From assembly GCA_951406725.2 (NCBI GenBank), contig OX597817.1:111724001-111788000 (forward strand): a DNA stretch of 64,000 nucleotides, written 5' to 3'. The stretch comes from Octopus vulgaris (lineage: Eukaryota). Below the pieces are notes generated by a model that worked only from the letters and a program-made list of their open reading frames with translations, was not told the origin of the DNA and did not search any database. This document shows positions 10,961-49,110 of this stretch, piece by piece; position 1 is the stretch's first letter, and each line of letters begins with the position of its first letter. The position numbers were made by a program, and so were the translations under genes.

Positions 10961-11791
10961 TCAAATTGGAACCATCTGGAAAAGTTTTTCACATATCTGA
11001 AACTCAAAAGATTTATCTCCTGTGTGTGATCTCATATGTACATTAAGGCTAGAATTATGGGAAAAATTTTTCCCACATAGTTCGCAGTGAAATGGTTTTT
11101 CTTCGTTATGTGTCCTCATATGCTTTGTTAGATGGGAATTCTGTGAAAAACCCTTTCCACACATTTGACAACTAAACGGTCTTTCGCCAGTGTGTATTCG
11201 CATGTGTTTTGTTAGATGTGAATTTTGAGAAAAATCCTTTTCACATATCTCACAATGAAAGGGTCGCTCCCCAGTATGGGTTCTGAGATGTTGTGTGAGG
11301 TAAGAATTTTGAGAAAAGTCTTTGCCACATACTTCACAGAGGAAAGGTTTCACCCCAGTATGTATCCTAAGATGTTTGTTGAGGGTAGAACCATCTGAAA
11401 AATCCCTCCCACAAACCCCACAAGAGAAAGGTCTTTCACCAGTATGTGTCCTCATATGTTGGGTGAGATTAGAACTGTGAGAAAAATTCCTCCCACAAAT
11501 TTCACAGTGGAAAGGTTTCTCTCCTGTATGTACTCTCATATGTTTAGTTAAATTGGAGCTCTCTAGAAAGTCTTTCCCACAAACCCCACAGAAAAATGGC
11601 CTTTCCCCAGAGTGTATTTTCATATGTCTTGTAAGATTGATGTTTCTTAAAAAGTCTTTGCCACATGTCTCACAATGAAAATGTAATTCTTCTGTTGATG
11701 ATCTCTCATTACTTTTCTCATGTGATCTCAAAGGTAAATCTTTTCCTTCAAATTCGCTGTGAAAAGAATCTTTTCCATTGCAAATTTCCAT
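10961..11791 (-). CDS. Tandem C2H2 (Kruppel-type) zinc-finger protein, 8 intact fingers plus a degenerate 9th
   Basis: Eight CxxC-x12-HxxxH repeats with TGE(K/R)P-type linkers in one open frame. First in-frame ATG at 11791; the frame is open to about 11890. Confidence 0.92.
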
Positions 11792-11845
11792 GTGCACTCG
11801 AATATGCAGTAGATGGTTTTTGGTCAATCTTTTTACATTAAATAA

Positions 11846-11931
11846 AAATTGAAGACCCTATTGCTAAAAGTGCTTAAGTCACATTAATTTGCGTGTGACT
11901 AAAGCACTTTTAGAACTAGGGTCTTCAATTT
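11846..11931. repeat. 86-bp hairpin (38-bp arms, 3 mismatches, 10-nt loop) immediately upstream of the ZNF ORF
   Basis: aaattgaagaccctattgctaaaagtgcttaagtcaca ... tgtgactaaagcacttttagaactagggtcttcaattt. Confidence 0.92.
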
Positions 11932-23409: not shown

Positions 23410-24310
23410 CAGAGTTCTGTGCAGAAGATATTTTTTCAAGACTATATTATGCAAAAAATTTGGGGGAAATTCATTTTACCATCAAGAGAATTCAAAAATA
23501 TTGGACATCTAACCAATGACGAAGAAGTAGAGGACATAGCCAGGGACATCAGTACAGACATAGACATGTGGCTTGCCACCTTTGCAACAACACTGACAGA
23601 TGATGAGCATAGAAGTGATACCCAACACCACATAGTCTGCACAGACGTGCAGCTCTTGATGTCATTCGACTTTGAAGACTCAGAGTTGTACACTGATATG
23701 GAAACAGAGCAGAAGGCAATCAAACTGATATCACAAAGCAGGAAGCCCAGTTACTATTTGTGTGGAAATAAGAGCAACTTGAGGACTCTCTGCCCAGAAG
23801 AGAAAGAAAATTGACTGAAGAAAGAGGATGATAGAAAACAACAGCAGCAGGTTCCAGAAGCTGTTTCTAGTATATCCTCAATCAACTCCAAGGATAGTAA
23901 GAGTGAAAAAAATCACTTCAACCTCGCCATCAAGAGGCTCAGGGGGCTTTCCTCCCAGCAAAGAGCCAAATAGAGACCATAGCTAAGAGTGTAACTCCAT
24001 TATCACAAGATTATGGAGAGATGGAAACTGGAAATAAGTGGAAAACTACTAAAATACTAAAAAGGGGTAAGAAAAATAAAAATTGAACTTGACCAGAAAA
24101 TAAAGAAAGACTGGGGAACTCTCATTAAAGGCCCCCATCCCCATGGGGCTTTGGAACTTTACAGTAATTCAAAAGAACAACTCTACCTAGTTGACCAAAC
24201 ACTGGCCCTTATAGGGGACCCAGATACTTTGCTGATTAAAAAAGGAGTTGAGTGACAAGAACTAAGAGCCTATAAATGAAGGACATTTAATAAAAACCAA
24301 AGTGGTGGTC
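23410..24310 (+). mobile_element. Old ORF1 (gag-like) remnant of the Tx1-type family
   Basis: KLISQSRKPSYYLCGNKSNLRTLCPEE aligns by eye with EGRKPRCFKCGKKSHVRSEC of the ORF1 at 43550; no ORF2 follows. Confidence 0.55.
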
Positions 24311-34936: not shown

Positions 34937-36530
34937 TTATTTCATTAAATTTGCCACAAGGGCAGCACACAGAGAGAAGCTTGAGGGCTAGACAGAGACA
35001 TTAATGGGATGAATGATGATGATATAAGGATGGGAGAAGACGAAAAGCGCCTGCCGACTTTCACTTCTCTAAAACATTGTTCTTTTTCCTTTTTTTAAAA
35101 AAAAACACAATGAGGCAATAAACCTCTTACACAGTTCAAAATTAAAAATAAAACACAAACACGAGGCAATATTCCTCTCACTTTTTACATTTTTAGTCTC
35201 TTTTTGAGGTAATACACCTCTTCAACTTTTCCGCCCGGCTAGGCTCCTCGCTTCATTGAAGCACCTGGTCCGTTCCGAACTTAAAGGTTTCAACATAAAT
35301 CTGAAGGAGTCCTTTGGGAAGGAGTTCGTTATCCTGCACAGATCGTTCTCCCATATGACCTCCGCAGCCACCTGCGAAGGCCACTCAGGGTCCTCCATGT
35401 AGGACAGAAGCCCCTCCCACCGACACTTCCTTTCAATTTTTTTGATTTCATTTTGCAAATTTCCTCCCTTGTGGAAGAGGACCAAAAATTCCTCCTCCAG
35501 CGGCACACCCGCCAAAGGAGAATCGGGACACGCCGGCAGCGTGTCACAACCCGCCGGCAATGTCCCTTTTTTCTTTTCTTTTTCCCTTGGGCCGCGAGAG
35601 GGTGGTGTTCCTTTGTTGTGTCCAGTAGGTCCTCCTTTTCTCCCGCAGCTCTCGGGTTCTTCGGTGGGCAACCATTGTTGCCCACCTTTCGCTCCTCCTT
35701 CTCTCTCCATTGAGGGAGCAGGGAGTGATTCCTCTGTTAACTGCTCCAGGATCCTATTTTGGTCCTTGGGGCAGTTTTTCTTGATGTGGCCGGTCTCCAG
35801 GCACAGGTGACACTTGGGGGGGGGGCGTCCCTCGAGCATCACCGGATACCTAGACCCTCAAAAAATCTGGGAAAACCAGACTTTCGGCTGATTGGGTCCA
35901 TAGGGTCAACACAGCTTTTGACCCCTCCCAATCAGCCGCAGGCAAAATTTTTACGTTGAGCAGCTTGGTACTGCTACCACCCAGACCTCGGCGGATAGAG
36001 TCCTCAATTCCGGGTGGTAGACCGCAGACGCAAGCCCTCGTTAACTTTTTCCCATAATAACTGGGGAGGAACATAATTTCATTGCCCTCGAGGGGCTGGC
36101 TTGCAAATTCGCAAGCTTCTTAGGGGGGAATCAAATAGTAACCAGACCATTGCAAATTTGACTCCCCGTGAAATAAATTTAATGGTTGGCATGTATTCTG
36201 TCAGCTCTTTCAAAATTGTGGTTTTCGGGAAGACAGTTATTATATCGAGCGACTTTGAATAAGTCCTCAATACCACCATCTTCCTTTCGAGCTCTTTTAG
36301 CCATGTTTTGGGAGGTGTTAATTCCCACACAAGTAATTCCTTTGCCATTTACAAAAAGTTCAAATACAGTGCAAAATAGAAAAATAAAGACACAAAAAGG
36401 AAGAAGGAAAGACACAACAGAAGGGAAGAAAAAATAAAAATAACAGTTCAATAAAAGTTCTTTTTTTTTAAATAAATGATAGTTGTGAAAAGAGTTCAAT
36501 TCCTGGCAAAGAAATTAATTTTCGGTCGAA
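34937..36530 (-). mobile_element. ORF1-only Tx1/L1-type non-autonomous retroelement
   Basis: Frameshifted ORF1 (36348-35222): ERKMVVLRTY, FLPSYYGKKLTR, EGRPPPKCHLCLETGHIKKNC (CCHC); T-rich 3' UTR ending gcccttgtggc...aataaag; no EN/RT. Confidence 0.75.
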
Positions 36531-36565
36531 AAGGTACTCCTGGCCTATCCTTGTAATCTAATCCT

Positions 36566-36890
36566 TGTAATTTCACTGGTGGTAAACCTGGAGGGAAAAC
36601 GTACAAGCGAGGTTGCAACTTAAATACGTTTATTGAGGCCACACATATATACACAATGGAATGATCAATAGAAAGGTTGGTGTGTAAAGGCTATGGTCTT
36701 CTGTGCTATGCTCCTATCTGGTAGCTGGTGGGTGTTGGTAGAGGCTAGATCACATCTTTACAGTTCGAGGTCCCAGTACAGAAAGAGGAAGAGATAAGGT
36801 CACGTGTCTGAACTTTAATGTTGTGTAACACCCTCTGCCCCTGTATAGCCAGCTTGTTTACCTGCTGTCAAGAGGGGTAATGTGCCTACA
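36566..36890 (-). repeat. 3' LTR
   Basis: TG...CA, similar along its length to 39534-39868. Confidence 0.9.
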
Positions 36891-39533
36891 GAGGCCCCCC
36901 TCTTAGACTGGAAATGGTCGATTAATAGTAGTGTAGGCGAAGTGTATTAGGAGGGCACAGAAGAATGAACCATGGCAAAACAGTAGTATGAACAATTGAA
37001 AAAATACAATACAAGGAAAAACATTCAGCAAAGAAAGGTGTGCAATCAAGGCATATATGTACAATGATACGGAAGAGAGAAAATGTGTATGCAGTGTCTC
37101 TAGCAGCATAAATCTATTTTCCGGAACAGTTACTGGCAAGGCAAAGTTAAGAAATGTAAATAGTCAGAGACAGTTTCTTTGGCCGATGAACCAATCTGTC
37201 CTGTAAGGTGAAGAATGTGTTTGTGTAGTTGGTGTTTTGGTGAGTGGAGGTGGAGTGGCAGTGTTTGTGGAATGATGGGTGTGTCAGCAAGTGGGCATAA
37301 ATGTTTTGGAAAAGGTTTCTTTTACTCTGCCGAATGTCCACAGTGATCAGTTTAGGTGTGCTTTTAAGATTGCACTAGGGTCCAGTGTAGGGAGGTGTGA
37401 GTGGTCCCTTGATGGCATCATTTCTTACGAACACATCAGTCAAAGGTTAGGGTTGGGGTTACTGCAGAGGAAATAGACTGGTCACGAGGAAGCAACAATA
37501 GCAGGTCAGCAAAGATTGACATTTGTCCAAGAAGTGCTTAGGTGGTGCCATACAGTAACTCAGCAGAGGAGTAGCCTAAGTAAGTTCTCCTTGATAGCTG
37601 AGCGGCACCTTAGCAGAACAATGGGGAGAAACTCGGACCAATGATGAGGGTCAGGAGCCATGCGAATAGCAGCTTTAAGCTGGTAGTGGAATCTTTCTAC
37701 TATTCCATTCATGGCAGGATGGCAACTGGTGGTGTGGATGTGCTGAACTCTGAGCAATCTCAAAAACTCACAGAACAGACAAGCTTCAAATTGGTGTCAA
37801 CAATCAGTAGTAATTCTAGAGGGTACTCTAAAGCGAGATATCCACCCAGAGACAAGTGCTCTGGCAACTGTTTCCACAGAAATGTCCATGAGGGGGATGG
37901 CTTCAGGCCATCTGGAGAAACGGTCAATGCAGGTCAATATATAAGTAAATCCACAACTGATCAGCCAAGGACCAACCAGGTTCATGTGTATGTGACGGAA
38001 CCTGGCGTCCGGTGGCTGGAATTTCCAAGAGGTGCTCTCAAGTGACGATGACCTTTGGAACGCTGACATGGTAGACAGGCACATGAGTGTCGCATATTTG
38101 GCCAGAAAAAGCGGGCCTACATAAGCTTTACTGTGGACGCGATGCTGGGGTGTGACAGTGAATGCAGTGCTTCAAAAACAGCAAGGAGGGGCGTCTGGTC
38201 CTTCCTGTGGAATCATCCCTTGAAGACGAACGATTCCTACACATGCGTGAAACCTGACGGGTCAGTTCTGCGACAGCCCGCAAGATTTCAGAGGATTGTA
38301 TGTGAACCAGAGCAGAAGAAGCAGAATCTTGAGAGGAAGATGAAGAAGCAGAGGATAGTGAGCCAGAAAATTCTATAATCCTGTCTGCGGAGGCGGCGAG
38401 TTGTTCAAGGGCCGTGTGTTCCATTATAGGAGCTAATCGACTGGTACATTAGAAGGCATCCTCAAGAAAAATAGTTGCTTGACAAATGCCTGTCCTTCAT
38501 ATGAGCTATTGGACAACTCTTCGATTCGTCGTAAAAACTGGGTGGGGATTCGGTCCCCGAGATGCTCATCCTGCAAGAGTGTGCGAAATTTACTCTCAGC
38601 CGAGGGTGAGTTACGCCGCAGAACCTCGACTTTGAAGGTTTCATAAGTCATATCTGGTGGGGTTCCTGTTATCATATCTCACACTGAAAGTGCGAGCGGA
38701 GAAAGAATGCCAGTAAGAGCGATGTGAAGTTTGCTCTAGGCCGACTGAATGTTAAAAGAAATGAAGAACGATTCCAGTTGTGAAAACCACATCTTAGCAT
38801 CTCCTTGATATTGAGGCAGAGGAAAATGACTCATCTTGGACGACAGTAGGAAAACGGAACGGCACGAAGAACAACTGGTTGAAGAAACGCCGTTAGAAAT
38901 GGCAGTCAAAACACCATAGTTGAAAAAAGACACGATGAGAAGCGAACTAGGAAAAAAAAATTTTTTTTTAATAGCAGAGGATGAAAATAGAAGAAATCCT
39001 AGCTAGTTGATAAGGAACGAATTATGGCCAACGCGTAGATAATCCGAATGGTTGGGAGAAAGAAACTCATACCTGACAAGTAGGAAAATTTTTTGTGTCC
39101 ATGTGAATTCTGGAGAAAATTCTGGACAATTTTTTTCCTTTTTCTTTTTTTTTTATAAGCAAGAAGAAAATTGTCTGGGACGCTGTGTCCTCAAATGACC
39201 GAGTTGTATTTTCGGTTATCACCCGAGAAAAACGATTTGCAGTTTCCCGCTTGAAAATGGCGCCAAAATTTTTCCTGGTGAAGAAGACAATATGACGACG
39301 AGAGGCATCAGTGGTAGCATGTTCCTATGCGAGGAGTGGAGGTCGCCAAAGTCGCGAAAGAGAAAAGGGAATGCGTATTCACTGTTCTGTATTCGCCCGG
39401 TAGTCACCATTTCAGATGAATATGTTCATCTCCCACATTAAGTTGCCATGTTAGAAGTTTGTGTTCACGTCGGGTGTCATCATTTTAGATGGTGCGGGTC
39501 GTTATGAGCCCCTAAATATGGCTCTCAGAGGGC

Positions 39534-39868
39534 TGCAATTTCGCTGGTAGTAAACCCAGATGAAAAACATACAAGCGAGGTTGCAACTTAAACACGTTTA
39601 TTGTGGCCACACGTATATACACAATGTAATGATAAATAGAAAGATTGGTGTGTAAAGGGTATGGTCTTCTATGCTATGCTCCTATCTGGTAGCTGGTGGG
39701 TGTTGAGAGAAGCTAGATCACATCTTTACAGTTCGAGGTTCCAATACAGAAAGAGGAAGAGATAAGGTCATGTGTCTGCACCTTAATGTTTTGTAACTCC
39801 TTCTATCTTTGTATAGCCAGCTTGTTTACCCGCTGTCAAGGTGGGATAGGTGGGGTAATGCGCCTACT
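39534..39868 (-). repeat. 5' LTR
   Basis: Direct repeat of 36566-36890. Confidence 0.9.
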
Positions 39869-39920
39869 TCTTCATGTCGCTAATTTGACTAAAAATGCTA
39901 TTCAAGAGCTCTGCCGTATT

Positions 39921-40547
39921 AAATAATAATAATAATAATAATTGTGTACAGTGCTCAGGTGCACTACAACTCATCTAAAGTGTATATATAATCAGGTGAA
40001 GTTTCGGCGGATTTCGGAAAGCATGAGGGCCTTAAAAGATGCAGTGTCATGGCAGTCAACAACTGACGCAGGCAGTTTATTCCATGCTTCAGCAACTCTG
40101 AGCGTGAAAAAATGTTTCCGAAAGTCATGGGAGCTGTATTGTTTTCTGACTTTGTAGGCATGTCCACGTGTGTTAGACACATGGAGATCAAAAAGGTGTT
40201 CAGTGTTGTTGTTGGTGAGGTGGTTGATAACTTTGTGGGTGTTTACCAAGTCCGTCGCCAAACGCCGGAGCTTCAGTGAATCCATGCCCAGGGAAACAAG
40301 GCGCTCAGAATATGGTAGGTGTCTGATGGAGGGTATGCGTTTGGTTGCACGTCTCTGGACAGATTCCAGGAGGTCAATGTTCTGTGCAAGATAGGGGTTC
40401 CAAACTGATGATGCGAATTCCAAGTGTGGTCGTACCATAGCTGTATACAGTTTTAAATAGATGGCTGGAGAGCGGCTAACAAAAGACCTGCTGAGTGATG
40501 CCAAGACACCCTCGGCCTTCCTGACAATCTTAGAGATATGCTTTGAT
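39921..40547 (-). mobile_element. 5'-truncated CR1-clade LINE with (ATT)n tail; ORF2 C-terminus still open
   Basis: LYTAMVRPHLEFASSVWNPY...LESVQRRATKRI...YSERL..LGMDSLKLRR...TRGH..K...FFTLRVAEAWNKLP. Confidence 0.92.
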
Positions 40548-40948
40548 GTATTCTTGACCGCATTCTCTTGAACAATCTGCGACACGTTTGTTCAATGACT
40601 ACGTGGTTCAATTAATTCTTCGCGTCAAAACCTGATGATTTTTACTGTCAAGGCATTGCAAGCTTGTGTAACATTGGCGAGAAGTCATGAACAATGAAAG
40701 AGAATATATTAGAATAAATTATTGACTGATCTGTTGAAGTTGTTGGTGAAAAATAAGGATTTTTAGCGAGACCTAGATTTGAAACCGTGTAGGTTTAGCA
40801 GCTAAAGATTAGGCATCTTCCGTGAATATGAGCCAATCATCTTGCAGCAATATCATCCCATATTATCGAAAGTATCAGATGTTTCTACCAAAATAGAGGT
40901 TATAAATGCGAAAGAGTGGTCAAACACAAGAGAGGTGCCCATAGGTGA

Positions 40949-42611
40949 ACTGTGTAGTCGTTTTTTCGAACCTGTGAGTAATTGCTTTGCCTCTTGTTTG
41001 TTAATTTTTGTTAATCGTTATTGTTGAATTTTGTCTGTCAGTATTGTGACAGACAAGAAAAAAACCGGTTTACCCCTCCCTAAGGGGGAGGGAATGGCAA
41101 GGAATAACGTATTTTCGAGCCTCAGTGAGTCGGAACTGTCGACCTCTGAGGAGGAACTGGCAAAGGCAGTGAGGAAATTGGATAGAGAACTGGGAGAAAA
41201 AGCAACATACGCGCGAGCGATGAAGCCAACGGAAAAGGAGGTAGATCTGGCTAAGTTGCCAGGCTATCGAGAATTTTTAACAAAGGTAGGCGGTGACGTT
41301 GAATTGTCGCCGCCAAGGAAAAGAAGAGACTGGTATGAGAAAAGACTATTACATACAAAGTCTTCGCTAACGAAAAAATAAGAATAGAGTTGGTCGGTAT
41401 GGAAATGAAAGAGGAAGCACTGAGAACGATGGAAGAGGAGGTAACGTTTCTCGCAAGAGGCATTGGGTTCGGTACCGTGGTTGTGCTGTTCAAGTCCGAA
41501 AAAGTTGCAAGAAGAATGGCGACAAAAGCGATAAAGACGGAGAAAGTATTCCTTCTGCCCTCGTATCTGGGAAGAAGGACGACCCGGATCAGGGTGGAGG
41601 GAATACCGCCAGACATAGACGGAGAGTATATTGTGGCAACCATCATCAGCGGCAATGAAGATAAAGTAGACATTCTTCATGTCACGGTGACGGACGAAGG
41701 AGGATGGAGAGGAGGAGTGCTGGAGATGGGTGTCCGGGCAGAATTAGAAGTACTAGAACAACTGACCGAGACGATAACAATGGGAAATATCATGATGAGA
41801 GTATGGGTGGAGGGCAGAGCTCATCGTTGTTACAAATGCGGCTTGAAGGGCCACATAAGAACTAACTGTCCTCCCCCAACAAAAGAACCAAGAAAGGAAC
41901 CAGCAAGAGAGGTAGAGGAGGAGCAGATAGAGAATACAGCGGAAGAGAAGCAAGTGGTCGAGGAGGAGGTACCAACAGAATGGGAATCCATGGGAAGAAG
42001 GAGAAAAAGATAAACTGTACTGAACCCCAACCCACCCCATCACCACCCGCACCCTGTGTGGCCCACCCTTTCCCTGCAGACACTGAACCCACCCGCTCCC
42101 CACCAACAAGAAAACAAAAAAGAAACACAAACACACAAGATAACTTTAAAAATTCCCGTCCCCATGTTTTAGGTGTAAGAAACAAGGAAGAAATACTTGA
42201 AATATTGAGGGATTGGGGAAAGGTGGAATTGCAAGACAGCTGGAATGAGTTGGGGTTGATGGATATAGTAATATCAGATGACCAAGAAAAAGAACTCAAA
42301 GAAAAACTTTAAAAAAGTTGTGATTTAATTTGGAAAACGATTGAACCGAATAGGAGATATGAACTGGAAGAAAAACATGGGACGAAACTAGAGGACTACA
42401 TGTTTTTTTTTTATCCCGATATAGGGAAGAAGGACAAGTAAGTGATGTTATCGGATGGGGCCGTTAACATCGCTTTTATTTCTCATTTTCACAATTTTTC
42501 ATTTTTCATCATACGTTCCTGTATTTTTTTTTTTTGTGTGTGTGTGTTTTGTGTCCCCAATGTTTGTGATGTCCCCCTCTATGTAAGCCCTTTATGGGTA
42601 ATAAAAAATAA
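40949..42611 (+). mobile_element. ORF1-only Tx1/L1-type non-autonomous retroelement with TSD
   Basis: 5' UTR, ORF1 from ATG 41094 to about 42441 (three frameshifts; LLPSYLGRRTTRIRVEGIPP, EGRAHRCYKCGLKGHIRTNC), T-rich 3' UTR, aataaa tail; flanked by agaggt(g/t)cccataggtga. Confidence 0.85.
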
Positions 42612-42632
42612 AGAGGTTCCCATAGGTGACAC

Positions 42633-45600
42633 TTTCCCTCGTGGTTACAAGTGTGTTTTTTTTGGTCGTGCGAAGGTAAAATTTTGTGGCTGCTATTGAT
42701 ATTGTTAAATTTGTTATATTTTGAAAAAAAAAGGGAACTGTTTATTGCTTGTTGTGAAGCAAAATCTGTTTTAATTCCCCCGTGCGGGGGAATTTTTTAT
42801 TGTGTTTATTTGTATTTTTTACACAATGGAAAGTATTGACACGCGTAAAGAGTGTATCTCCAGAGCCAAGTACGAGTAAGGATTCGTAGTGAGTAGAAGG
42901 AATATTGACGTACCCAGCCTTGCAACTGGGGAGGAACCAATAAGGAGCTTTGCGGCTGCCGCCGGAGGAAACTCAAGGAAAACTGATACAACCTATTTGA
43001 AGGCACACCTGGAGCTATTAACGAAAGAAAGGAACGAAATAAAGGTGGTCCCTCCTCATAGCATCATTAAAGATGCACTCGAAAGGACTATAGTTTTCAA
43101 AACGTATAACGTTGAAAAAAAAAAATTGACTATGTAAATGACAAAAACGTAGAAAAATGTTTAAGGCCTATATGGAAAGACATCGAATACTTGGCCAAAG
43201 AAAAAATATATGCAACCGCTGAAGTGAGAATGTCGACAGTGGAACAGGCACAAAAATATTCTGTAGAGCCGCTGCAAACAGTTGAGGTGGTACTGTTGCT
43301 TATTTATATGGGGAGGAGAACCTCCAGAATAAAGATAAGCTGTGTACCACCAGAAATAAACGCCGAATGGCTAGTAGCGGCAGTACTGTACAACTTGGAG
43401 GAAGAAATCACACTTCTTTCCGCGGAAGTCACAGAAGACAAAGTCTGGCTTGGCCAGACAATAAAAATGTTAATCCAAGCGGAACCTATGACCCTAGAAA
43501 AAATTCCAGAGGTCATAGACATAATAGATACAAAGCTAGTCGTCATGGTGGAGGGTAGAAAACCCAGATGTTTTAAATGTGGAAAGAAGAGCCATGTTAG
43601 GTCCGAATGCAAGAGTGGAGAAGAAAAAGAAAAAGAGAACAAAGAAAATAACATCGAAGATGATTCGGAAGACGAAACTACAGAAAACGGAAAAATAGAG
43701 GAAGAAAACACACAAGAAGAAAATGAGAGCGAAAATAAAGAAGAGACGGAGTGAGAGATAGCTGGTAGCAAAAGGAAGATTAAAGAAATATGAAATCAAA
43801 GAAAGCATGAAAAAGCAAAAAGATCAAAAACAAGAGAAAAAGAAGTACTGTATATGGCGGTTCGAACTTCAAACTCGAGGTTAATGAGCCGAATAAAATG
43901 TAACAAAAAAAAATTAAAAGAACTGAATACAAAAACGTAAAAGACGGGTTCGAAATATATTACGTGGACAGAACGTCTTACAACGTTCTAACAAATGACT
44001 ATCGGGACGATGTTGGCCCGATGAGGTGGGATATTTCAGACCAACTGTACGATGGCTTACTTAACACCCCATCCTTCGCCTTTTAACGAAGACACAGTAA
44101 ATTAAGGTAAAGCTTATGGCAGTTCACGTTGGATGTTTAAATGTGCGTGGCCTGACCGTGGGATGGAAGCATGGTCGCTTCTTAAACGACGTCAGGTCAC
44201 ATAATTTGGATGTCATTGTTGCTACTGAAACCCGGTTAAGGGGATCAAGCGGTCTGCTCCCACTCCTGAGCGGATACGAGAAATTTATTTCTCCAGGTCC
44301 ATCGGAGGGTGGGGTGGGTGTTGGTCATACTAAAAAGAAACCGGGTTTCAGAGAAGTTAATTTTTTCTGACCAAGAAGGTAGGCTGGTCGTCTTAGACCT
44401 GACTTTCAGTTGCGGTAAGAAAATCAGACTGGTGGCAATTTACGCTCCCAATAATGGTCAGTCTGAGTATTTCCGAGACCTAGAGAAGTTTCTTGTTACG
44501 TCGTACCTATTAGTTTTGTTATGGGACTTTAACTATTCACGATGCGCGCGTAGATAATGTTGGCTGGGACTCAAATAGGGCACCGAATGCCGGCTTCCGG
44601 GATCTACTATGTCACTTTCAGCTAGTAGATCCATACAGACTTGAATTCCCGAACACCCCAGTGTGGACATGGTTAAGTGGTGACGGGTCTTTTAAGTCCT
44701 ATATAGATAGGATTCTAATTAGAGAAATAGATCCATAGCTAAGTGTCTACAGTTCCACTTGGTCAGCTACAGTGATCATAAATTGGTCACTTGTAAGCTG
44801 AACCTAGATAAGTTACAGAATAGAGGATCCGGTTACTGGAAACTCAATAAGTCCCTTTTGGTGATTGAAGAGTACAGGAGCCGGATTAAGTTATTGATAC
44901 AGAGGTCTTTAACAGGTACCATCATTAATAATAAATGGTGGTACGCCCTCAAAAGAGCCATTAAATTTGAGTCTGTTAGATATAGCATAGATTTAGTGAC
45001 TAGAGAGCGTAAGAGGGAACTAAAACTAGTTAAGGAATTAGAGGAAGCCGTGTTGACTGGTAGTGCTGCTCGGGTGAAGGCTAAGAGACTGGAATTAAAC
45101 CAGCACCTCGAGGTCAAACACATGGAATGCATTATCAGGGCCAGACTTCATGCAATGGGGAGTGAGGGGATCAATGCCGATGGATGGGCCCAGATGGTGG
45201 AAACCCAACGTGGAATTGATTCCACAATTCGATCTGTGGAGAACCTACAAGGCGAGATTGTGAACGAGCCCGATGAGATGTGTCAGGCTTTTCGGGAGGG
45301 GCGATGGACCGGATAGTAGGTTGGACCTTTCGGACTTCCTTACCGGGCTGCTGCGTCTCTCGGGGCAGGATGCTGAGTGCTGTGAAAGGTCGATCACACC
45401 TGAGAAGGTGAGAGAGGCTATAGCTGATTGCAAAGTTGGTAGGGCGCCGGGACTTGATGGTTTTCCATACGAACTGTACAAAAGTATGCCAGTCTTGTTT
45501 GGGCAAATTGTGGCCGGGGTTTACGCGAACTGGCAGCAGAATGGGTTGATCCCCAAATCTGTACGCCGGGGAGTGGTAACTCTGGTCAGGAAGGGCCCAG

Positions 45601-46788
45601 ACAAGGGGGATAAGATAGACAACTTTAGGCCTATGACTCTGTTAAACGCAGAGTTGAAGATTTTGGCCAAGGTACGAGCAAAAAGATTGGCGCGGATTGC
45701 GAATGTCCTGATCGGCAAGGTACAAACCTGTGCCGTCCCCGGCAGAAGCATTCAGGACAATCTCCATCATATACGCTATACCTTAGAAGAGTTTGGTAGT
45801 GATTCTGGCAAAGGTGGGGCTTTGGTCTATTTAGACCAGTCAAAAGCATTCGATAGGGTTGACCATCGGTACCTGGTGTCCGTACATGGTTTACGGAGTG
45901 CCGTAAAACACTCCTACTGTTCCGTCGCTCGGGTAATGCCAGTGGTTTTGGTACCATCACATCTTTCTATAGCAGGTGGGTAGAGGCTGGGAATACCCTA
46001 GGTCTCGGAGATAACCAGTTAGACAGTCTGTTCCGAAGGACGTTCGGGCCGGGGTGTTTGGATAATTTCCAAAAATCCCTGGCCTGGAAATGTTACCGAG
46101 GAGCTTTACCCGTTCGGGATATGCTCGCACGACACGGTCAATCTAGACTTACGGACTATCCAAGACGCGGGCAGGATAGGGAAACTGTCCTGCACGCTAT
46201 TGTTCAGTTTCCGGGAGTGTCTGCAGTGTGGACTTATGCAGAACATCTGCTGTCAGGTTCGAGAAGAGTACAGCTGTCGTCTGAGTCAATTGTAAAAAGT
46301 GACCCGCCGGATTTCCTCACGAAAGAAGGTAAGCATTGTTTTCTCACAGTAGTAGCAATTGCGAAAGAGGTGGTATAGAAGACGCGAATGAAAGGTTTGG
46401 CGACAGGCGACTTCATTTCCGGTCTCGGGTTGGTGAGATTTTTTATCTTCCCTTAAAAGGAAGGTGAGGCTGGAGAGAAGATGCCTGTCAGAGAAAATAT
46501 TCAAAGAAAGATGGTTGCATGTTACGAGGGTGCTGGGAATGAAAGATTCCTCGTGAACATGTCATAAGCCTGTATACAAAGATTCCAGTAGGAGATTGGG
46601 GCTCGTGAGGTCGGAGCGTAACCCATCTCTCTGCTTCATTTCATGTTTGTATTTTGTCCTTGTATTTCATTCGATTTCATTATATCATGTAAATTTTTAA
46701 AAGTTATATAATCATTGTGTGTCTGACTCCCAATCAGGCTGTATTGTCCCACTCTGTATTCCGCCCCTTGTGGGTAATAAAGAAATAT
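42633..46788 (+). mobile_element. Tx1-clade (L1 group) non-LTR retrotransposon: ORF1 plus ORF2 (APE endonuclease, RT, C-terminal Zn finger), disrupted, with an internal RT deletion
   Basis: ORF1 about 42826-44085 (CFKCGKKSHVRSEC); ORF2 from 44116: GCLNVRGL, ATETRL, IYAPN, SYIDRIL, YSDHKLV, GSGYWKLN, APGLDG, NFRPMTLLN, LDQSKAFDRVDHRYL, then jumps to AWKCYRGALPV...ETVLHAIV; 21-bp TSD. Confidence 0.92.
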
Positions 46789-47369
46789 AGAGGTGCCCAT
46801 AGGTGACACAGACTAACAAGTCCGAAAGAAGACTGGTTTCTTGGCTGCTACTCGACCCCAATTTTTAAAAAACCGTCGACTATGAAGAACAGAGTTTTAC
46901 ATTGGTTAAAGTCACCCTTGGTTTTACTAAAAAAAATATGTATATCATTGTATAATATATTTTGCATGTTCATTCGTAGAAGTAACAAAAGAAACCAGCT
47001 TTATTCCTTCGTAAAGTAGTACACGGAATCAAAGCAAGAAACATTACAAATTCTGCTGGTTGTTGTTCACCATCATTTGATAATTGAGCTTGGGTCGTCA
47101 TTGGTTATGTATTAATTTTCCTATGAAAACAGCAGGATCTTCATAGCTCGCCTTGATGAAAAAAAAACTTGTACCTAATTGTAGCTATATTGAGTGATTA
47201 CTGTATGTCCTATTTTGCTCTATAACTTTCAGCATCTCATCGACTATCCCTGACCGTTCGGTTGCTCTCTCTCTCTCTCTGCCTTCATATACTTAACAGC
47301 TATATAGCAGTCAATTTCAATAGCTGGTCACTCTGTTACGAACCCAAATACCGCTAGACAAACTTCCTC

Positions 47370-48095
47370 TTATTCTTCAGTGAAAAGCTTCAAGACGACT
47401 ATCTTTATTAACACAATAAAAAGTAAGTCTAGAGAGGTTGTAGAGATTCTTGAGCAGAAGTGACTAGGTGCATGTTGTGCACAAGAAACAAGATGAAGGG
47501 AACCTCAATCAGATTCTCCATAGACAAGGAACACTGGTACAAATTCTTCTGAGTGGATAACAGCACTAGAGTTGGTGAAATAAGCATATTTTGGGCTGAG
47601 AAATTACTAAAGTAATTGTGGTAGTCGTATGTGACTGAATAACTAAGCTTAGATTAGTCGTAGACAAACATCAGCAGTGATGATCTCTGCATATGCACTG
47701 AAATCAGGAGATTAGCAAAAGGATCGCTTCTATGGAACCTTCTTGCAGACTACCTCAAAAACAGATGACAATAACTTCGTTAACGTGGTTGGTGTCTTTA
47801 ATAGACATGTTGAACAACACCATCCTGCCTATTCTGATGTATATGGAAGTCATAGTTATGGTACATGTAATGAAGAAGGATCAAGGCTCTTAATGTCCTG
47901 TAATGCAAATTACCGAACGCAACACTAACTTCATGAAACCGGCAAGCCTCCTCAACGCCTACCATTCAGGTTAACATTCTAGCAAAATAGACTTCTTACT
48001 TACCAGGAAACGAGATAAACAAAATGTCGGAAATATTTAGGCTTTCCTCTATGAAGAATGAACCATTAAAACATACATCCATTATCAGTGACTTG
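47370..48095 (+). mobile_element. Decayed RTE-clade APE-endonuclease fragment
   Basis: SREVVEILEQK..CCAQETR, VISAYA, VGVFNRHVEQ...YGSHSYGTCNEEGSRL, SKIDFLL remnants. Confidence 0.7.
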
Positions 48096-48938
48096 ATAGT
48101 GGGTTGGTAGTCTGAATGCGACGATGGCCTGGGGGCGACTCTAGGACTCGGGTTTATTCAACTGGATAGCCTATTTCACCGTACATTCGGGTTGAGAACG
48201 TTGGACAATTTCCAAAAGTCCTCAACCTGGCAATGCTACAGAGGTGCCTTGCCCATTTGTGATAAGCTCGCAAGACACGGTAAGCGTCAGTCGCCGACCT
48301 GTCCAAGATACGGAGTGTGGACAGGGAAACCGTCCCTCACGCTATTGTTCAGTGTCCGGAGATAACTGAAATGTGGGCTTATGCTGAACACCTGTTGTCC
48401 GGCGAAGGAAAAGTACAGCTGTAGACTGAGTCAATTATAAAAATTGACCCACCGGGAGTTTTAACGAATGAAGGTAAGAATTGTTTTCTCACGGTTGTAG
48501 CAATAGCAAAAGAGGCAGTATGGAAGACTAGGATAAAAGGAATTAAGACAGGCAACTTTATCTCTGGCCACAATTTACGATCATTTTTTTCTTTTCATTT
48601 GAAAAGGAAGCTGTGGCTGGAGAAAAGATGTTTGTCGGAGTGTACGTTCCAAAAGAGATGGAAGCATGTTGCACGAGTGTTGTGCTTGCAAGGAACCGTG
48701 TGAATAGACAGAAAAAAAGAAGAAAAAAGGTACCAGCGGTAGATGGGGGCTTGTGGGGTCGGAGCGTGGCCTGATCATCGTTTCATTTGTATTGTCCTTG
48801 CATTGTTAATTCCATTCGATTTTTTATATTGTATTTAAATTTTTAAAGTCACATTATATGTAAAATCATATCGCTTTACTGATCCCATCAGTTGTTCTGT
48901 CCATTTCTATGTTTGGCCCCCGGTGGGCAATAAAGAAA
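48096..48938 (+). mobile_element. 5'-truncated Tx1 3' fragment related to the 42633-46788 element
   Basis: Nucleotide similarity to about 45990-46788 (ggacaatttccaaaagtc; ggaaaccgtcc..cacgctattgttcag; gaaggtaag.attgttttctcac) and the same gccc..ggg-aataaag end. Confidence 0.88.
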
Positions 48939-49110
48939 TTGGTATTTCGTCTGTCTTTATGTTCTGAGTTCAAATTCTGCCGAGGTCAACTTTGCCTCTC
49001 ATCCTTTCGGGGTCGATAAATTAAGTACTAGTTGCGTACTGGGGTCGATCTAATCGACTGGCCCCCTCCCCAAAAATTTTGGGCCTTGTGCCTAGAGCAG
49101 AAAAGAATAC
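48939..49110 (+). mobile_element. Family-A SINE lacking its box-A end
   Basis: Begins ggtatttcgtctgtc, includes core and tail. Confidence 0.85.

Follow-up and report, generated by a model that had tools for sequence, protein, structure and literature searches.

Can a LINE that encodes ORF1 and nothing else found a lineage of its own, copied by enzymes that other elements provide? The question is raised by a short insertion, here called element A, within 64,000 nucleotides of Octopus vulgaris DNA (the window). The first-pass annotation had read it as an ORF1-only, HAL1-like retrotransposon with its own target-site duplication, a possibly intact ORF1 and an ORF2 borrowed from its neighbour. Our analysis retains the core of that reading and alters several of its parts. 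Element A is a decayed copy, probably of a self-propagating ORF1-only non-LTR family from an octopod Tx1-like lineage that is likely copied by ORF2p acting in trans, a reading to which we assign a probability of roughly 0.74.

Anatomy of element A

Element A occupies 1,663 bp of the forward strand (40949-42611) and consists of a 5' UTR, ORF1 and a 3' UTR, within the boundaries originally proposed for it. The 5' UTR is also as described, a T-rich leader of 145 nt (40949-41093) that runs up to the ATG at 41094. ORF1 lies on the same strand in three pieces. The first (41094-41381) opens with this ATG, has the N-terminal homologues P0032 and P0020, and is broken near 41341 by a frameshift where one base is missing relative to the sister copies described below. 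The second (41339-42013) encodes a predicted tandem RRM, a CCHC knuckle (about 41828-41872) and an acidic/basic linker, and is broken at about 42003-42010, where 13 bases fewer are present than in the sister copies. The third (42013-42441) encodes a Pro-rich stretch and a C-terminal domain (P0001, 55% over 53 aa, E 1.5e-11); it is interrupted by an in-frame TAA at 42310-42312 and ends at its last TAA at 42439-42441. An ORF1 profile match spans 41285-42145.

The 3' UTR (42442-42611, forward strand) is 170 nt long and ends with a terminal motif that is common to two neighbouring elements, B and D, closing with a 4-bp hairpin, AATAAA at 42600 and a tail. The annotation was right on the T-rich 3' UTR and the AATAAA, but the tail itself is short and A-rich, with no long poly(A). 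Its claim that endonuclease and reverse transcriptase (RT) are absent is confirmed by a search in which 0 of 120 ORF2 homologues matched element A (tblastn, E<0.05); a 300-bp segment of element B, used as the control, returned 26 hit rows. The loss of ORF2 is clean, in that ORF1 extends into its C-terminal region and 170 nt of 3' UTR remain, where B and D have 232 and 234 nt. Element A keeps a LINE 5' UTR and 3' end and is bounded by a target duplication.

The ORF1 protein and its relatives

ORF1 piece 2 gives a confident predicted fold (mean pLDDT 88.4), and a structure search with it returned 13 PDB matches at E<=0.001, the top-ranked being tandem-RRM proteins, with low TM-scores. The CCHC knuckle seen in the first pass is upheld by a zf-CCHC match that falls under the family cut-off (E 0.0021; 18.5 bits, cut-off 20.8), and Pfam gave no Transposase_22-type match in this ORF1. 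The predicted protein is thus of type I (RRM + CCHC), consistent with Tx1; in the accessible text of PMC5203782, type I ORF1s are those of Tx1 in non-mammalian animals and the mammalian ones are of the Transposase_22 type.

The best named relative is O. sinensis LOC118767527 (62% identity, E 1.6e-60). Seven of the 10 ORF1 matches checked are named proteins of Octopus or Argonauta, and several of the top matches are octopod proteins named uncharacterized. Element A is therefore not a mammalian HAL1 proper: its relatives are octopod and its ORF1 is predicted to be RRM-RRM-CCHC. Piece 3 aligns with the O. sinensis protein and, weakly, with a C-terminal profile of five database ORF1s (4.2 bits, a score reached by 2 of 200 shuffles), so that ORF1 is probably full length. 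A search for longer ORF1 homologues yielded none among 1812 candidates, and when metagenomes were scanned with ORF1, 0 of 280 stretches were confirmed.

A decayed reading frame

The three interruptions of ORF1 had been attributed to possible assembly indels in A-rich runs, with no other in-frame stop, which would have left the ORF1 possibly intact. Two of them are indeed frameshifts (about 41341 and 42003-42010), but the third is no frameshift; it is the TAA at 42310-42312, and the statement about in-frame stops was wrong. We compared the locus with aligned short-read contigs from 4 of 24 runs, X1 and X2 (organism A), X4 (organism B) and X10 (organism C), the three organism labels being likely octopods. 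Coverage of X1 was about 80% of the run, and X1 or X2 may come from the same sample as the window, a circumstance that leaves the check on assembly error just as strong. The second frameshift is spanned at single-copy depth with 0 differences and 0 gaps (X1 record 5, X2 record 22), as is the TAA (X1 record 8). Among the contigs listed, no single-copy contig of organism A covers the first frameshift; in organism B it is retained (X4 record 27, net -9 nt). In contigs of organism B, about 1.6% diverged, both frameshifts are present (net -9 and +9 nt).

These contigs bear directly on a reading in which ORF1 is intact, masked by long-read indels, and perhaps serves as a domesticated gene like L1TD1 or ZCCHC3. 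Both frameshifts do sit in A-rich sequence, the O. sinensis relative at 62% identity is an annotated protein, and atlas features resemble the RNA-binding domains of ZCCHC3 (score 0.90). For this copy, however, a hidden intact ORF1 is already contradicted by the gap-free contigs over the second frameshift and the stop, by the retention of both frameshifts in organism B, and by the target duplication and tail that the element still carries; we consider such a reading to have practically no chance of being right. Assembly error does not explain the breaks, and since the frameshifts and the stop recur in short-read contigs, this copy of element A is a pseudogene. The junction between elements A and B is likewise spanned by contigs, in X2, X4 and X10.

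Purifying selection may have acted on part of the frame in this lineage. In the RRM region (41342-41484), 17 of 18 sister differences are listed, 8 synonymous and 9 not; plain site counts give a dN/dS of 0.26 (p 0.017), and a dN/dS of about 0.45 (p 0.08) once 14 transitions are allowed for. After the 42310 stop, 2 of the 11 differences listed (of 30 in the contig) are synonymous, a count that leaves out the row at 42250, upstream of the stop; dN/dS is about 1 or more, and this C-terminal region looks neutral. With the two regions pooled, p is 0.24.

Neighbouring elements and a shared 3' end

Element B (42630-46788, forward strand) is a decayed element with an ORF1 core at 43116-43751 and an ORF2, encoding endonuclease and RT, from the ATG at 44116 to about 46560. 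An internal deletion at about 45880-45900 has removed some 290 aa inside the RT (residues ~380-674 of the best homologue), and there are many stops and frameshifts besides. P0153, a homologue of this ORF2, contains Exo_endo_phos, RVT_1 and zf-RVT, and the best PDB match of the ORF2 is L1 ORF2p (E 1e-72, versus 6e-29 for R2). Element B belongs to the L1/Tx1 group, its ORF2 being of the endonuclease-RT type closest to L1; since the close ORF2 homologues bear no informative names, the designation Tx1 rests on architecture and site preference.

Element B had been taken to represent the family from which element A borrows its ORF2, a proposal that is not borne out. The ORF1s of A and B have 33% identity (E 4e-36), and in a quick ORF1 tree of 28 rows, from which element C (see below) was left out, element A pairs with the O. 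sinensis ORF1 (SH-aLRT 99) and element B with three other proteins (97). Because the ORF1s fall in different clades, element A is not a deleted B, nor, on this sequence comparison, is B its parent. Since about 290 aa of ORF2 are missing inside its RT, this B copy cannot be a donor either, and a donor whose ORF2 is intact did not turn up.

What the elements do have in common is their 3' end. Element D (48045-48938) is the 3' end of a 5'-truncated ORF2, with 71% identity to B across 757 columns of the alignment; it carries the 3' terminal motif and adjoins a SINE-like repeat, not the target sequence that flanks A and B. The last ~66 nt are common to A, B and D, including the 4-bp hairpin before AATAAA, with alignment scores of 59 for A-B (19.9+/-4.1 in shuffles) and 48 for A-D (21.1+/-4.3), neither reached in 2000 shuffles. 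By folding energy the hairpin is not significant (z-scores -0.8 to -1.2). Nor is the similarity of the A and B 5' UTRs, whose score was reached by 168 of 2000 shuffles. A scan with ORF2 returned 80 distant loci, the best segments mostly 24-32% identical; weak ORF1-profile matches occur at 28 of these loci and the 18-bp target, at <=4 mismatches, at none.

A probable sister family without ORF2

All four runs hold sister contigs that are 9-10% diverged from element A (about 90% identical) and stand at 3.1-5.4x single-copy depth. Contig depth is not copy number, and several copies is what we infer from it; the contigs are short and collapsed, and the family was pieced together from them, with none covering a whole sister copy. 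Within these limits the ORF2-less structure recurs in several copies, as collapsed short contigs at 3-5x in 4 of 4 runs. The central piece is X1 record 7, which aligns over 329 of its 329 nt to 42151-42483 at a depth of 287 and is unbranched. It crosses the end of ORF1 and runs 42 nt past the last stop into the 3' UTR, where its 3' part lies in a stretch alignable with the UTR that follows ORF2 in B and D; among the contigs listed, it alone goes more than 31 nt past the stop. With the end of ORF1 and the 3' UTR on one unbranched sister contig, a deletion confined to a single copy becomes improbable, and the first-pass preference for an ORF1-only family is supported.

The sisters also differ from element A in length. 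They have 1 nt more at 41341 (X2, X4) and 13 nt more at 42003/42010 (X1, X4), and so have open-frame lengths at both frameshifts. X10 record 10 has its first aligned position at 40960, preceded by 58 letters that do not align, which suggests a different insertion site, and depth arithmetic places the sister starts in three runs at 40947, 40952 and 40953, an indirect estimate that agrees with the 5' end of A. In two X4 contigs a different ORF1-end-like 30-mer adjoins the same 3' UTR start at 42430 (30 letters judged), hinting at more distant ORF1-only relatives.

Summed X1 contig depth rises to about 49,000 at 41790-41871, about 100,000 at 42036-42117 and about 11,500 at 42364-42527, though low complexity may inflate the latter two. 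This suggests that the DNA coding for the knuckle, and the start of the 3' UTR of A, occur in many further elements.

Two other origins must be weighed against a lineage that propagates as such. ORF1-only copies could arise time and again from an autonomous parent, as by-products of RNA that lost ORF2 before insertion, through a template jump or through splicing as in the idea of spliced L1, in which case they would form no lineage of their own. The clean loss of ORF2 at both ends would suit this, as would a donor-like AAG/GTAAAG just before the ORF2 ATG of B and a CCAG a short way upstream of the motif conserved in the 3' UTR in B and D, both found by eye. A near-identical ORF2-bearing parent would be expected, however, to break the collapsed X1 contig at the end of ORF1, and record 7 continues past that point. 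Nor is there a third contig class over 42320-42349 in X1; the depth there (347.9) is the sum of the sister contig (287.3) and the locus (60.6), which together explain all of it, so that no ORF2-bearing near-copy is left in this run. Element A and its sisters are, moreover, 9-10% apart and yet have the junction in common. We therefore give the by-product reading little credence.

Much the same small weight falls to a single ancient deletion of ORF2 in one inserted element, followed by segmental or tandem duplication. Collapsed sister depth could be segmental duplication, the sister copy number is low (3-5x), the contigs include no complete sister copy flanked by a duplication of its own, and internal deletions do occur here, B having lost about 290 aa of its ORF2. 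Yet the left target-site bin is at single-copy depth in X1 (53), the sister contigs are estimated to begin at the 5' end of the element in three runs, and the upstream flank of X10 record 10 seems unrelated. A random deletion would also rarely remove all of ORF2 while sparing ORF1 and most of the 3' UTR. Propagation of an ORF1-only family thus remains the reading that we favour.

The target site

The 18-bp duplication claimed for element A is present in three copies on the forward strand. The left copy (40931-40948) and the middle copy (42612-42629) enclose A and differ by one mismatch, at 42618; the middle copy is common to A and B; and the right copy (46789-46806), at the far end of B, has 21 bp in common with the middle one when the next 3 bases are counted. 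In the 64 kb there are no other matches to the repeat at <=3 mismatches (expected number 0.00, 100 shuffles). X4 and X10 read the G form at 42618, and the T in the window is therefore probably derived.

The presence of two distant families, A and B, at one site points to a site preference. The idea that A inherits the targeting of its neighbour accordingly holds for this site. It is not supported for the family as a whole, since the sister starts estimated indirectly from depth (about 40947-40953) seem to lie outside the repeat and D lies elsewhere. A strict version, in which the family of A depends on that of B and always inserts into the 18-bp sequence, could appeal to the occurrence of two families with 33% ORF1 identity at exactly one site, and to their common 3' end. 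The indirect evidence runs the other way: D has the shared 3' end without the target, the sister contigs seem not to reach into the 18-mer, and 12 contigs of X10 depart from the alignment after 42608, their sequences beyond it being mixed (agreement 0.47). Such a rule seems to us unlikely, and targeting looks like a preference.

By analogy with HAL1, a master copy would have been transcribed from its own 5' UTR, and its RRM-RRM-CCHC ORF1p would have coated the RNA in cis. ORF2p of an autonomous Tx1-like family could then have acted in trans by recognizing the shared 3' end, trans-mobilization being suggested by that 3' end together with the shared site. The ORF2p would have nicked the target and primed reverse transcription, giving the 18-bp duplication; as insertion would regenerate the site, A and B could come to lie head to tail at one favoured sequence. 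The donor would be some family of the shared 3'-end group, not this B copy. This copy would have acquired its two frameshifts and its nonsense codon once inserted, and at least some of these lesions would predate the divergence of organisms A and B.

The target itself is not a known RNA gene, given that Rfam at gathering thresholds gave 0 matches in the 64-kb window. A motif resemblance suggested that the target might lie in a decayed Tc1 N-terminus, but this idea gained no backing, with no Pfam transposase family and 0 PDB matches, and no transposase match was found in the immediate target flanks. About 210 bp upstream of the target, at 40592-40720, lies a fragment resembling a mariner transposase C-terminus (Mos1 in all 4 matches, E 0.097), in a repetitive stretch that reaches up to about 25x single-copy depth. 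A second possible mariner scrap near 39860 was discarded, having 0 matches with a query that was not in the intended frame.

Relation to known elements

HAL1 is described, in the accessible parts of PMC5753468 and PMC3627910, as an ORF1p-only non-autonomous LINE derivative of several origins, whose ORF1p is believed to work in cis, with ORF2p supplied in trans. Element A resembles it in encoding ORF1 and no ORF2. It differs in that its ORF1 is predicted to be of type I (RRM + CCHC), whereas that of HAL1 is of the Transposase_22 type (PMC5203782, accessible text), in that its host is a mollusc, and in that its 3' terminal sequence is common with ORF2-bearing partners. Bipartite non-autonomous LINEs that retain ORF1 are named in the accessible text of PMC5786205 as HeT-A, HAL1 and Ag-Sponge, derivatives of the Jockey, L1 and CR1 clades, with no Tx1-derived case there. 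HeT-A (Jockey clade) and Ag-Sponge (CR1 clade) are elements of the same ORF1-present kind as A from other LINE clades, and no telomeric role is suggested for A. HeT-A forms head-to-tail arrays with its autonomous partners.

A further parallel is the crocodilian Tx1-Mar, which, in the accessible text of PMC4494074, carries passengers that are non-autonomous to a site it prefers, tandem insertions of SINEU-3 enclosing the target duplication. As a family Tx1-Mar inserts into a Mariner transposon, and the mariner-like fragment some 210 bp upstream of the A target may be a likeness to this, the match being weak (E 0.097). In a post hoc comparison, the SINEU-3 duplication given there matches the target at 9 of the first 10 bases and 1 of the last 6 (10 of 16 in total), and matches the middle target copy of the window, with its probably derived T at 42618, at 10 of the first 10 (PMC4494074). 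The passengers of Tx1-Mar are snRNA-headed SINEs, whereas A codes for ORF1 (PMC4494074, same text).

Candidate donors exist in octopods, in that O. vulgaris has 13 recently active L1-Tx1 families with 421 insertions (PMC13282606, accessible text); the main text of that paper, as available, mentions neither ORF1 nor non-autonomous elements. We found no ORF1-only case from Tx1 or from molluscs in the accessible portion of the literature searched, which excluded subscription journals, Repbase, Dfam and supplements, and nothing on ORF1-only elements in the available texts of PMC11203168 and PMC7140322. PMC4176376 was set aside as irrelevant, TX1 being the name of a mutant there. The strategy is thus known from HAL1, HeT-A and Ag-Sponge; its use is possibly new for the Tx1 branch, and no new mechanism is involved.

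If our reading is true, a Tx1-type case in a mollusc would make the loss of ORF2 with retention of ORF1 a general LINE strategy. Such elements and their partners would also offer a natural pair in which to test the need for ORF1p made in cis, and whether the 3' tail alone licenses trans-mobilization and site choice. Octopus genome annotations probably list copies of this kind as orphan CCHC 'genes'. One might go further and speculate that octopods host long-lived, self-propagating ORF1-only Tx1 lineages of more than one origin, the family of A and element C among them, which ride the autonomous Tx1 pool by means of the 3' tail, and that the site into which A inserted betrays an endonuclease preference akin to that of crocodilian Tx1-Mar. 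This wider proposal is a long shot.

Surroundings of the locus

The region 35000-49000 is a nest of transposons. Element C (35088-36456, reverse strand) contains a more distant ORF1 of the same type (profile E 2e-12 to 6e-9, with CCHC), and 0 of 120 ORF2 homologues match it. It has a T-rich 5' region and a 3' end unlike that of A, B and D, and a low-complexity sequence of 9 bp is directly repeated at 35079 and 36457. Element C could be a truncated copy or else an ORF1-only element of independent origin. Next to it, on the same strand, lies a decayed LTR retrotransposon, likely Gypsy-type (36566-39858; LTRs 89.6% identical over 307 bp, integrase core E 1.1e-5). A 3' LINE fragment (39920-40591, reverse strand), which carries an open frame of 199 aa and ends in a trinucleotide tail, has no Pfam support; by its motifs we presume it to be CR1-like. 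Farther away, a heavily decayed ORF1 remnant of the same type as that of A lies at 23470-23862 (tblastn E 9e-4, profile E 1.5e-6), and a 298-aa open frame on the reverse strand (10961-11857) contains an 84-bp tandem repeat, the period expected of a C2H2 zinc-finger array.
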